From positions 13,950,001-14,014,000 of the forward strand of contig OX597825.1 of assembly GCA_951406725.2 (NCBI GenBank): a DNA stretch of 64,000 bases, in the 5' to 3' direction. This DNA is from Octopus vulgaris. Its lineage: Eukaryota. Made by a program: the position numbers and the translations under genes. Below are positions 4,316-53,276 of the stretch, piece by piece (position 1 is the stretch's first letter; each line of letters opens with the position of its first letter). The notes under the pieces are model-generated. The model was given only the letters and a program-made list of their open reading frames with translations, was not told the origin of the DNA and did not search any database.

Positions 4316-4970
4316 TTACTCTTTTAGCAGCATTCAGATTATTCTAGCAAATGTAAAAAGAGCCCCTTCAGTTTTAAATCACCATGGGATTGCTCTGTGA
4401 AAGTTCTCCTCCGAGGCACAAGTCTGAGCAAGGTTGTTTATGGAAGACCAGCAGTCGCCCTTGCATATCAGCCTCTTGGTGGCACATGGCCTAGTGGTTA
4501 GAGCAGTGGACACGCGGTCGAGGGATCATGAGTTCGAATCTCAGACCGGGTGATATGTATGTTTATGAGTGAAACATCTGAGCTCCAAGTGGCTCCGGCA
4601 GAAAGTAATGGCGAACTTTCTGCTGACTCTTTTGCCTGTGCCAGTTGCATGTAAACAGCACCCACTACACTAATGGAGTGGTTGGTGTTAGGAAGGGCAT
4701 CCAGCTGTAGAAACACAACCAGATCAGACTGGAGCCTGGTGCAGCCTCCTGGCTTCCCAGACCCCAGTTGAACCGTCCAACCCATGCTAGCATGGAAAAC
4801 GGACATTAAACAATGATAATGATGATGATGATGATGACGATGATGATTGATCGTTTAGTTTCAGAACAACATTGTAGCATGGGTGCGAGAAGCTAGATCT
4901 GGTCAATTTGAACATAAAACAGGTACAATCTTTTGGCCTAATATGGCCAGTTTGAATGCTAGAGGATTAA
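4316..4970. mobile_element. piggyBac-type MITE split by nested insertions
   Basis: Left end (tagcagcattcagattattc) and right end (gccagtttgaatgctagaggattaa) match the family at 18536-19057 and 53277-53497. Confidence 0.6.
4480..4848 (+). mobile_element. Family C SINE head joined to family D 3' part
   Basis: ggcacatggcctagtggttagagcag...gttcgaatctc head to ~4633, then gttaggaagggcatccagctgtagaaa...ggacattaaac(gat)n. Confidence 0.8.
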
Positions 4971-33322: not shown

Positions 33323-34959
33323 AAATGGTTAAAGCTATTGATAGCATTAGACTGGGAAATGTGTAAAGATTATAGCCGTTGCACTACTTCCTACAAATTT
33401 TAACAAAATTTCCATTTTGATAACAAAACATGGTAGGGGTACAGTCAATTGCTTGAACAGCTATCAAACCTGAAGTGAAAAGGGCAAATAAAAGGGGACA
33501 AAATAATCTAATCCGAAAAAAAGGGAGTTAAAGAATATTTCAAGAGAGTTGAACGACAGAAGGTCTTCAGAGAAGAAACCCTCCTCAGGCAAGTATTTTA
33601 GCTCTTCTTACACTCTAAAGGGGCTAGGTTGCATGCTTGTTATGACCCCTGGATGCCCATCTGCTGACACTTTTTAGCTGCTTAGGTAAAAAAAAGGTCA
33701 AGTTACATTCTTGAGTCATAGTGACTCAAAAGGGCCAGTTTCCTGCTTTCCATGACATATATATTTCCCACCCCCCTGGATGGGGTGCGAGTCCAGAGCA
33801 GGATTAACTCACTTTTGCCAGCTGAGTGGACTGGATCAAGACCTAAAACAATGCAAAGTGCATTGTGACTAGCGATGTATATCATCTGATAGTCTGGTCG
33901 ATACCATAGTACCATGATATATTTTTGTACTACATCTCTCTTTGTTTATGATAGCTGCTTCAAGAAAAAAAAGAAAAAAAGAAGAAAGAAAAACGTGAAA
34001 TGAATCTGAGACAAATGAATAACAGAACATATAAGAAGAATCGGTTTTATTCTGAGACCCTAAGTTACCTTAAACATTGTGGATGGTTACTAGGGAATAT
34101 TTTTGTGGTTCAGGCAGAAACTTTGACAGGTTACTGAGCCATGTTGTCTTAGATCATTTTGTGATAAGTATTACATGGTTCACAATTGAGCAATTGAACA
34201 TCCCATTTTATTCTCAATAAATGATGGATCAATCTGTTATAAGTTAGGATAAATGCATTGCCTTCTCTGTAAACATTTCCCAAATGACTCTTATTCATAT
34301 CTGTCTTTCAGACTATAAACTCCATTTAAATCTATAAACTCTGGTCCTTGTATATTTGTGTATTTAATATAGATCAAATAGAGTGACAAATGGTCTGGCC
34401 TTCTGCAAAGTATTATACATTGCTTAATTATCTTTCTCTCAATTCTGAATCCAAATTCCTTTGTGATTGTCTTTGTCTTTCAGGATTGATATAATATGTG
34501 CCTATATATGCACTGCAGTTGATTCAATTTGAACCTGTGTTCTAGCATTATTTATCATAGACAATATACTGAAAACAGATGACATTCTAAATGATATTGC
34601 TTTCTCCACTCTCAATAATTTAGGTGGCTGAGTAGATAAGAATTAAAATGATCAATTTGAAATTTAAGGGAAATGATGTCTAACCCTTAGCATTCAGAAG
34701 CTAGCATGGCCAAATTTCATAACTCTTAAAAGGTCCACTCGACTAAGCTATAAAGAGGAACCACTTAACAAGCAGTAGCCATTCAGTAAATTTCGGTAAA
34801 TGTTTTATTAGAATGCAAATCAATGCTTTCTATCCCGCTTTACATTCTGAGTTCAAATTCTACTGGAGTCAACATGCCACTTATCCTTTCGGGGTCGATA
34901 AAATAAGTACCAGTTTAACACTACGGTTGATGTAATCAACATGGCCCCTCCTCCACTAT

Positions 34960-35049
34960 GGCATACAGCATAGTGGTTAAGAGTGTGGGCTACTAACCTT
35001 AAGATTCCGAGTTCAATTCCAAGTGGTGACCTGAATAATAATCATGATG

Positions 35050-35092
<43 letters not shown>

Positions 35093-35349
35093 TATTAATA
35101 ATAATAATTATTATAATAATAATAATAATAATCATAATGATAATAATAATCATAATGATAATAATAATAATAATCATAATAATAATAATAATAATAATAA
35201 CATCGAAAAATACCTTAGGAATGAGAACCCGGTTCGAAATTTCCCCAAGAACAGCTGATGAAGGCTGGAGGGTATATCAGCTGAAACGTTGTGTTGACAA
35301 CAAACAAGATGAGGATAAATATCTGTCAAATGTAAATAATGTAAATAAT
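34960..35349 (+). mobile_element. tRNA-headed element with internal (AAT)n and a Penelope-like hammerhead-bearing 3' module
   Basis: A box cagcatagtgg, B box gagttcaattcc (35009-35020), AAT array 35034-35200, hammerhead 35250-35295; second copy at 42604-42893 (-). Confidence 0.8.
35250..35295 (+). ncRNA. Minimal type I hammerhead ribozyme motif
   Basis: aacag-CTGATGA-a-ggctg[gagggtatat]cagct-GAAA-cg-TT-gtgtt: both core boxes, stem II and a palindromic ACGT in place of stem III; stem I has a mismatch next to the core. Confidence 0.65.
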
Positions 35350-41900: not shown

Positions 41901-42598
41901 TGTGACTATGAACAGCTTCAATAAATCCCTGGCCTGACAGTTCTGTGGTTGGTGGGTACAGCTGGTTTGATATATAAACTCTACAGGCATGATTCCACTG
42001 TCAGTGAGGCTTTGGCCCTAGACATGCGTAGATCTACGGCGTACTTCAGTCAGCACATTTTAATATGTTGATGACTTGTAGACTTATGTTTTTGCTGCTA
42101 ATGGTGCATGTAGAATGGATGCAGCTATCAGCCAAATCTTTCATGCGTATCGACCCTCTGCCCGCCTTTCATCGGGAAAAGTTAAACAATTTTCCTCTAT
42201 CTTCTGGTGGTGATGGTGAAAATATTGTATGGGGGACAAATTTCAAAGGATAGAAAGCATTTTTGCTTTCAACATATTTTTTTTTATACATAAGTCCTTT
42301 AGCTCCTGGAGATAAGGTCAAACAATTGTCATGCTAACGAGGACTAATGAGCCAGAAACATGTCCAACACTGTTTTCTTATCTCCAGACAATAAGCCTCT
42401 CCTTTTCCTTCATGGTATTCTTTTCTTCTTTTATTCTTTTACTTGTTTCAGTCATTTGACTGCAGCCATGCTGGAGCACTGCCTTGAAGGGTTATAGTCA
42501 AACAAATCTATTCCAGGACTTATTTTTTAAGCCTAGTACTTATTATATCAGTCTCTTGCACTGAACCGCTAAGTTACGGGGAATGTAAACACATCAAC

Positions 42599-42750
42599 TC
42601 CACTTATTTACATTATTTACATTTGACGGATATTTATCCTCATCTTGTTTGTTGTTAACACAACGTTTCGGCTTATATACTCTCCAGCCTTCAATAGGTG
42701 TCACGGGGGAATTTCGAACCTGGGTTCTCACTCCTAAGGTATTTTTCCGA

Positions 42751-42825
<75 letters not shown>

Positions 42826-43055
42826 TATTATTATGCCTGGAATCGAACTCAGAATCTTGGGGTTAGTAGCCTGTGCTCTTAACCACTAAGCCCATGGGCA
42901 TTAGAACCCAGGTTTGAAAATTGCCCCAGGACACCTGATGAAGGCTTGAGAGTATATCAGCTGAAACGTTGTGTTAACAACAAATAAGATGAGGACAAAT
43001 ATCCGTCAAAAGTAAATAATGTACATAATTCCTTATCTCTTAAATATAGAACTGT
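42599..43055. mobile_element. tRNA-hammerhead element (-) with an inverted second copy of its 3' module (+)
   Basis: 42604-42893 is the reverse complement of 34960-35349; 42903-43028 is the reverse complement of 42604-42728. Confidence 0.85.
42929..42975 (+). ncRNA. Minimal type I hammerhead ribozyme motif
   Basis: ggacac-CTGATGA-aggcttgagagtatatcagct-GAAA-cg-TT-gtgtt; stem I gacac/gtgtt pairs with one G-U. Confidence 0.7.
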
Positions 43056-44130
43056 ATCAACATCACTTGTTAATCAATGAAATGGGAACAAAGACATAAA
43101 GACACACACACACAGACATATACATGGTGGGCTTCTTTCAGTTTCCATCTACCAAATCCACTCTAAGGCTTTGGTCAGCCCAAGGCTATATTAGAAAACA
43201 CTTGCCCAAGGTGCCACACAGTGGGACTGAACCCAGAACTATATGGCCGAGAAGCAAGCTTCTTACCACACAGCTGTTCTTAATTCCTGAGATCATCTCT
43301 CTTTCTCAACTGGAATTGATCTTAATTGTCATTTGGTAATTATGATATATTCTCTAGAGGTGGAAATGATATTTAATAAATGAAGAATTTATGTTACACG
43401 GCATTTGACATATCCCTATATTTGTCTGTTCTTCAAATTCCTGCCAGTAGTCAACTTTGATTAATTTCTTTAGAGGATCATTTCCATTTAATTTTTGTTT
43501 CTCTAGACTAGTTGTCTTCAAATTCCATCCACTTGAAAATAAAAGTCAGGTGGAGAGAAAAACCGATTCCACCCTTTAAGAAATTTGCTCAAAAGTTGAG
43601 GAGGGTGGTAACAATGACCCACATGAAATGGCATGCTCTCAGCATGAGCTAGTAGTCTGGAAACTGGAGAACCCAGCTGTGAGAGGGGCCTGGATTAGTG
43701 GAGTTTATTGTTTACCTGTAGCTGATTGCCAACTTCTTAAAACATCTCATTTCATTTCTTTTCAATTCTGATCTTTCTTTTTGTCTTTTCAATGCCTGTT
43801 ATTTTCATAATCAATTCTCTGTAAAAACTCATTAAAAAAAAAAACTCATTAATTGATTTTAGTTTATTTTTTTTTTTATGATATCTCTTTATCTGTCTTA
43901 CTTGTTCTTAATAAAAGAAACATAAAAAAAATAACAAAAACGATCATTATCATTATTATTGTTGTTGTTATTGTGAGAAAATTTGGTGGAAATTTCTCTG
44001 CAAACTTAGTTTGTAATTCCGTGATATTCTTCTATTTGGTGCCATTTCGTTAACGATTTCATTAATGATTTTGGAAATCCATGAACGCTACTTCTTCCTA
44101 AATTCTTCATTTTGGTATTTGCAGCTACAT

Positions 44131-53057: not shown

Positions 53058-53073
53058 AAAATCTCCATGAATA

Positions 53074-53119
53074 CCACACCTGATGATGTGCGGAGATCAA
53101 ATTCATTGAAACAATGTGG
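53074..53119 (+). ncRNA. Degenerate hammerhead-like motif of a different family
   Basis: ccacac-CTGATGA-tgtgcggagatcaaattcatt-GAAA-caa-tgtgg; stem I ccaca/tgtgg; stem II weak, no clean NUH. Confidence 0.35.
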
Positions 53120-53276
53120 AGAATTTAAATATATCGCAATAGAGGAAGTTAACAGTCTGATTCAATGGCACCAATTGGGTGGAACCAAAATGACGATACC
53201 CAAAACACCTCGTACCCTACTTCATCCCATCCTTTCTGGTCTCTTCGAGTGTATTCTTACAATGAATATCTTTGAA

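Follow-up and report, generated by a model that had tools for sequence, protein, structure and literature searches.

A head-to-head pair of Penelope-type pseudo-LTR pieces inside an octopus SINE, and a tRNA-derived head with a predicted promoter

The window analysed here is a 64,000-nt stretch of the Octopus vulgaris genome. It contains a single insertion, composed of two head-to-head arms and lodged inside a SINE (Table 1). The arms, 42604-42728 and 42903-43028, are inverted copies of one another with 88.9% identity over 126 nt (blastn) and a fold z score of -17.9, just where the first-pass annotation had placed them. That annotation described the minus-strand arm as a full element, but the arm ends at 149 of the module's 177 positions and has no counterpart of the 28-nt tail seen on the plus arm. 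Its reading of the two hammerhead cores is borne out by the sequence, the minus-strand core having decayed to CTATTGA and the plus-strand core being intact (CTGATGA). Both motifs are of the minimal type I kind (PMC4209133); in the plus-arm copy, stem II carries two changes although the core is intact. The block is very likely an old, 5'-truncated insertion of a Penelope/Poseidon-type element, built purely of pseudo-LTR (pLTR) pieces.

Table 1. Features of the insertion and of the SINE that hosts it (window coordinates; module positions refer to the 3' part of the pseudo-LTR)
Feature	Position	Strand	Details and basis
Host SINE, 3' part, left of insertion	42426..42605	-	blastn to other window copies, alignment
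Target-site duplication, left copy	42593..42605	.	probably 13 bp long with 11 matches, exact over the first 6 bp; alignment
Tail-less arm	42604..42747	-	covers 6-149 of the pseudo-LTR module, with the ORF start, hammerhead and a short 3' end; 93% to family majority
Decayed minimal type I hammerhead	42657..42702	-	core CTATTGA; sequence reading
(AAT)n spacer of pseudo-LTR	42748..42833	-	sequence reading
tRNA-derived head	42826..42894	-	has A and B boxes; each end slightly deleted in focal copy; alignment, tRNA comparison
Native linker/head boundary with palindrome	42890..42903	-	junction microhomology ~42897-42903; linker alignment
Tail-bearing arm	42903..43056	+	module positions ~25-177; module alignment
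Minimal type I hammerhead	42930..42975	+	intact core, weakened stem II, palindromic helix III, predicted cut after 42970; sequence
Penelope 'tail', on plus arm only	43029..43056	+	module alignment
Host SINE, 5' part, right of insertion	43056..43276	-	blastn to other window copies, alignment
Target-site duplication, right copy	43056..43068	.	alignment

Compared with six other copies in the window, the minus-strand host SINE comes back into register past the insertion. The hexamer ATCAAC is repeated on the two sides, at 42593 and 43056, as had been noted, but the duplication is probably 13 bp long, with two mismatches, rather than 6 bp. Taken alone, the focal duplication is borderline (score 7, a value reached by 13 of 217 control pairings). 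Its length fits the family: scores of at least 8 were obtained for 39 of 55 family insertions versus 6 of 217 mismatched controls, and 29 of these 39 duplications are 11-14 bp long. An empty-site check against the contigs of four runs gave no joint spanning the insertion among the matches listed; X4 and X5 yielded one piece over the right junction with just 27 letters on the element side, too short to bridge it. In X4, the contig over the right flank (43030-43782) has about 7 times the depth of the left flank.

The window contains other pieces of interest. At 34955-35349 lies a further member of the family, with a head, a long (AAT)n stretch and a module with the short 3' end; the inverted module arm is absent. 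An older module fragment, 80% identical and including the tail, occupies 41-124. A different hammerhead-like motif at 53070-53125 belongs to another family.

The annotation had regarded the tRNA-headed unit as a distinct element that borrows Penelope machinery. Upstream of the head, however, some copies run into coding sequence. A genome search with the upstream peptide gave 150 scored matches out of 4801 candidates, and in all 30 loci retrieved the head lies behind the stop codon, mostly at a distance of 32-34 nt; the module comes directly next in 24 of them. At the other end, the module runs on into the ORF, so that the pseudo-LTR, which arises from partial tandems, overlaps the ORF start, and the peptide encoded by the module is homologous to the N-terminus of a relative (P0003). 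Given that the head comes after the ORF stop in all 30 ORF copies and that the module encodes the N-terminus, the head, (AAT)n and hammerhead module together are the pseudo-LTR of a protein-coding Penelope/Poseidon-type element rather than of a borrower. In the parent, the ORF stop is followed after ~32 nt by the tRNA head, next by (AAT)n and then by the ORF start, which holds the hammerhead and tail; one decayed copy (L177) has the arrangement pLTR-ORF-pLTR. The hammerhead of the family pLTR, a predicted ribozyme read from the sequence, consists of the core, stems I and II and a palindromic helix III.

The majority sequence of 25 long copies contains an 818-aa stop-free frame, which starts inside the module and has RT and GIY-YIG-type motifs. 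About 60 nt near the ORF start are missing from this majority frame and deleted in L177 and are present in other copies. RVT_1 matches one copy (L161) with an E value of 2.7e-6 and 27.7 bits, slightly below the cut-off of 29.6, and the ORF protein has 2735 homologs at E<=1e-30. At the C-terminus we picked out by eye what we take to be a GIY-YIG-like motif with two inner cysteines. Pfam GIY-YIG gave no match to the endonuclease of the Penelope family, and PF01541 was found on 3 of the 120 homologs listed. By inspection, the 818-aa frame lacks the CX2-5CxxC linker motif, which is present in the genome's Neptune-type family and marks Neptune and Nematis (PMC8557442). Assignment to the Penelope/Poseidon type is by motifs, pLTR layout and homology. 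A Pfam GIY-YIG genome search yielded Neptune-type families, which are without the module. A young Neptune-type Penelope family (L231-L238, L246) has intact frames of 771-781 aa and tandem subrepeats after the stop codon; in L067 and L072, no canonical hammerhead was seen within 1.5 kb of the endonuclease.

A perfect 10-bp palindrome, GCCCATGGGC, had been placed at the inversion point. It does occupy 42890-42899, but it lies wholly in the minus arm, with the junction (~42897-42903) just to its right. Nor is it a product of the inversion: the palindrome is native to the Penelope element, because it is present right after the ORF in copies that are not inverted there. Among 21 parsed linkers from this position, the perfect form was seen three times and a CpG-bearing form twice, the others being decayed variants; CpG decay likely made the palindrome perfect. 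Perfect 10-bp palindromes are common, with 67 in the 64-kb window.

How usual is the inverted form? An exact 34-mer from the hammerhead region occurs 3061 times in the 2.8-Gb genome (reversed control, 0), and one from the head occurs 546 times. For an insertion sample, we used 92 of the 100 places listed for the hammerhead 34-mer, all on contig C1, which gave 90 loci and, after removal of two duplicates, 88 insertions. Both orientations are present in 57 of the 88, and since the sampling favours two-armed insertions by a factor of up to two, the true inverted share would be roughly 48%-65%. Inversion is the usual form of the family, and the count of inverted tails that the annotation had proposed speaks for its reading of a single integration. 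All 57 pairs are arranged head-to-head. The 3' ends are bimodal: of 345 ends from all fetched family loci, 167 fall at module positions 138-157 and 152 at 169-177, with one between and 25 earlier, and tail length is 27-33 nt across the family. The two classes are combined in a regular way. Fifty-five insertions have modules at each outer end: one end is short (138-151) and the other long (172-177) in 47, both are short in six, and two are of other kinds. Hammerhead monomer arrays were absent from the 88 insertions, which contain at most two or three tandem pieces; identity with the tandemly arrayed non-LTR retrozymes was rejected on this basis.

We put the probability that the focal block stems from a single Penelope event, as the annotation had proposed, at about 0.93. 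Besides the frequency of inversion, this reading draws on the relation between the arms. In 70 arm pairs, which include loci picked for likeness to the focal arm, 55 non-CpG variants are common to both arms, compared to 16.9±3.9 when pairs are permuted (0 of 2000 permutations), and at two linked sites that define subfamilies both arms of a pair agree. The focal arms carry the major alleles at these sites, placing them in the same subfamily. They differ from the family majority by 9 and 10 changes in 117 non-CpG sites, and hence are of equal age. The focal arms have only one variant in common, at a mutation hotspot, so at this particular locus the argument for one event is carried by the duplication that brackets the arms and by the pattern of the family. 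For module site 72, A-to-I editing was considered and dismissed: an asymmetry of A>G versus T>C is absent, and the site is a mild hotspot (19/168). It could be argued that two independent insertions occurred, the second targeting the first and landing head to head by chance. Penelope elements do insert beside their own copies (PMC6765202), and the focal arms differ from each other at 16 of the 117 non-CpG sites. Yet a single duplication brackets both arms, all 57 pairs are head-to-head, short ends are mostly paired with long ones, alleles are shared across pairs, and the focal divergence is equal on the two sides. These data largely refute independent insertion, which we regard as scarcely credible.

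How could one event generate two opposed arms? We consider twin priming, that is, two reverse-transcription starts, one on each cut target strand, to be fairly likely. In this scheme, the endonuclease would nick the two target strands ~12-13 bp apart. The right-arm cDNA would be primed at the tail end and the left-arm cDNA ~30 nt upstream; the left cDNA would have reached the 5' end of the RNA and the right one ended early, before the two were joined via microhomology. The template RNA would likely begin at a tRNA-derived Pol III promoter inside the pseudo-LTR. The alternative is self-priming, in which the native palindrome lets a cDNA (or an antisense template) fold back and copy itself to give the inverted arm, the 5' pile-up described below then reflecting a hairpin and not a promoter. 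Many junctions do lie at the palindrome, alleles are common to both arms, and self-priming has been proposed for Adineta vaga elements that have palindromes at the junction (PMC3846280). A fold-back copy, though, would be nested within its template. Among the 47 short-plus-long pairs, the tail-less arm extends >20 nt further 5' in 24, the tailed arm does so in 12, and the two are similar in 11; the focal locus belongs to the first group. Thus, neither arm contains the other in 24 of 47 pairs, which favours two RNA-templated primings, although later deletions could mimic non-nested arms. In addition, many junctions are distant from any palindrome, and the head is the start of solo copies too. 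Self-priming is, in our view, unlikely. The hammerhead cut is not evident as a source of 5' ends either, with 9 of 89 starts near the cut and no excess (P = 0.64).

On balance, the head may well act as a Pol III promoter. Its A and B boxes are intact, and its best match among the genome's tRNAs (taken from 30 loci) is tRNA-Arg(TCG), with a score of 64 versus a maximum of 52 in 300 shuffles. A model built from 18 of the genome's own tRNAs matches all four head loci it was given (E 0.002-0.1). ARAGORN called no tRNA in 10 of 10 loci, the Rfam tRNA model did not match the head, and scanning the window, L202 and L307 with Rfam revealed neither hammerhead nor tRNA among the matches listed (in one scan, all but 36 of 186). 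Fifty-five arms extend to the head start; 44 of them end within -17 to +5 and 11 continue into the ORF. The density of 5' ends in this interval is 6.8% per nt, compared to 0.7% and 0.4% on either side, with the palindrome blurring alignment starts between -17 and +1. Clean solo copies begin 1-7 nt before the head or at +4. A predicted hairpin at the head start (-13.5 kcal/mol) is a rival cause of these cDNA ends. Among 30 ORF-start copies, only one (L405) has a clean start at the head and continues into the ORF.

The composition of the element is relevant as well. The 2507-nt majority sequence contains no TTTT run and 31 AAAA runs. TTTT runs number 7-9 in nine Neptune-type copies of equal T content, 8 in another PLE frame, and 3, 1 and 0 in three LINE frames. 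The chance of finding none is 0.02 by synonymous shuffle, 0.004 with Phe codons freed and 0.055-0.13 under Markov models, and none of 23 long frames from metagenome relatives showed significant TTTT depletion. Absence of TTTT is only suggestive of Pol III transcription.

Two other readings of the head need to be weighed. It might belong to a separate non-autonomous SINE, a tRNA head with a captured Penelope 3' module, mobilised in trans by the Penelope protein. Most copies are indeed head-to-tail pieces without the ORF, with 5' ends clustered at the head start as in SINE transcripts, and solo pseudo-LTRs may serve as sources. This reading is rather improbable given the contiguity of head and ORF in 30 of 30 ORF copies, the presence of ORF-side linker bases in several short copies, and the 30 head-anchored loci, in which there is no head-only family having its own 3' end. 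Alternatively, the head could be inert, a passenger left in the 3' UTR by the fixation of an old SINE fragment, with the element read by Pol II like Drosophila Penelope. Protein-coding RNA made by Pol III would be uncapped. By inspection or search, no such head was seen in six further relatives that have a hammerhead behind the ORF (L312, L313/L314, L316, L326, L355), and D. virilis Penelope has an internal, LINE-like promoter (PMC2377424). We nonetheless find an inert head doubtful, in view of the 5' pile-up at the head start, the intact A and B boxes, the lack of TTTT beside the 7-9 runs of the Neptune-type element, and the similar layout of L307.

L307, a metagenome contig, carries a tandem Penelope-type element with a 2791-nt unit and 38% protein identity. 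At 1920-2200 and 4711-4960, between stop codon and hammerhead, it has a tRNA-like A-box/B-box stretch that ends in CCA and is followed by a short AAT run. With the box pattern fixed beforehand, 12 metagenome loci were screened, and the pattern was found between stop and hammerhead in both L307 pseudo-LTRs; a match in L313/L314 was false, as it falls inside the ORF. By chance the pattern is expected with a probability of 0.00055 per window searched, and among 300 shuffles one gave an equally good alignment to tRNAs. The L307 head was matched neither by the own-tRNA model nor by Rfam. Only two TTTT runs occur in L307, both within 370 nt of the unit's start. The most far-reaching possibility would be a protein-coding Penelope/Poseidon lineage transcribed end to end by Pol III, with TTTT purged from the 2.5-kb ORF, pseudo-LTRs that are self-contained SINEs, and a design that recurs in the unrelated eukaryote represented by L307. 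We judge that combination unlikely to hold. A search of viral contigs found no relative. Genome contigs gave a sole, partial locus (L416), where a piece of a Penelope-type RT lies on a contig binned with a bacterial genome and may be a contaminant.

The inverted arrangement is itself a published Penelope signature (PMC3846280). In Adineta vaga, the Penelope/Poseidon elements have pLTRs in inverted orientation, a 31-bp tail on one side, target duplications of 8-10 bp and palindromes at the junctions. Like the octopus element, Pen2a_Av has pLTR-ORF-pLTR plus an inverted pLTR, a tail on one arm only, the first ORF codons within the pLTR, and palindromes at inverted junctions. The Adineta pLTRs, however, have TATA/Inr-like motifs where the octopus pLTR has a tRNA-derived A/B-box head and (AAT)n, and the octopus duplications are longer, mostly 11-14 bp (PMC3846280). 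For Poseidon_Ac of Anolis, two RT start sites bound the tail in vitro and both target strands are extended (PMC11167929). In both elements the hammerhead is at the ORF start and the two start sites bound the tail inside the ORF, and neither gives a sign that hammerhead cutting sets the ends. The octopus tail ends, by contrast, lie ~123-129 and 156 nt into the ORF, and a tRNA head goes unmentioned in the available part of the Poseidon_Ac description (PMC11167929).

Promoter-plus-hammerhead repeats have precedents. The SINE-like Sm-alpha and Sj-alpha of schistosomes have a Pol III promoter followed by a hammerhead (PMC6765202), an order shared by the octopus unit with its putative promoter. They are described as non-coding and often tandem, whereas the octopus unit belongs to a protein-coding element as its terminal repeat and occurs in inverted pairs. 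Helenus, Ajax and Cassandra (TRIMp3) similarly have a small-RNA-derived promoter within the terminal repeat, as the octopus element putatively does. Those are non-autonomous LTR elements, whose autonomous partners must use Pol II (PMC10886601); the octopus repeat belongs to another class of element, one that bears the ORF itself. Animal non-LTR retrozymes share a type I hammerhead related to pLTRs and presumed Penelope mobilisation, but form tandem monomer arrays, and the main text describing them is without a tRNA or promoter term (bioRxiv 10.64898/2026.07.22.740005). The repeat library of PMC13282606 may already contain the family.

The less ordinary part is the apparent tRNA-derived A/B-box head, a predicted promoter, within a Penelope pseudo-LTR; among the papers and passages covered, our literature search found no description of a tRNA-derived promoter in such a position. 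The arms add a mechanistic argument: derived from the same source yet non-nested, they fit two RNA-templated primings better than fold-back, and match the two start sites found in vitro. If the head does work as a Pol III promoter, this would be a protein-coding retroelement with a ready-made SINE as its terminal repeat. The many short copies would be explained, a possible route to promoter-plus-hammerhead repeats such as Sm-alpha would be apparent, and the translation of a Pol III RNA would become a question.

Several loci show the module in other contexts. In five (L036, L037, L043, L054, L099) it immediately follows the (AAT)n tails that end LINE-like ORFs, which we presume from their motifs to be R4/Dong-like; target preference or co-mobilisation could be involved. 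In another six (L023, L040, L052, L059, L098, L101) it comes after the terminal (AAT)n of a different common repeat. Finally, among L387-L415, many ORF-start copies stop 75-370 nt into the ORF body and then jump to the head or module, which suggests template switches between short RNAs.
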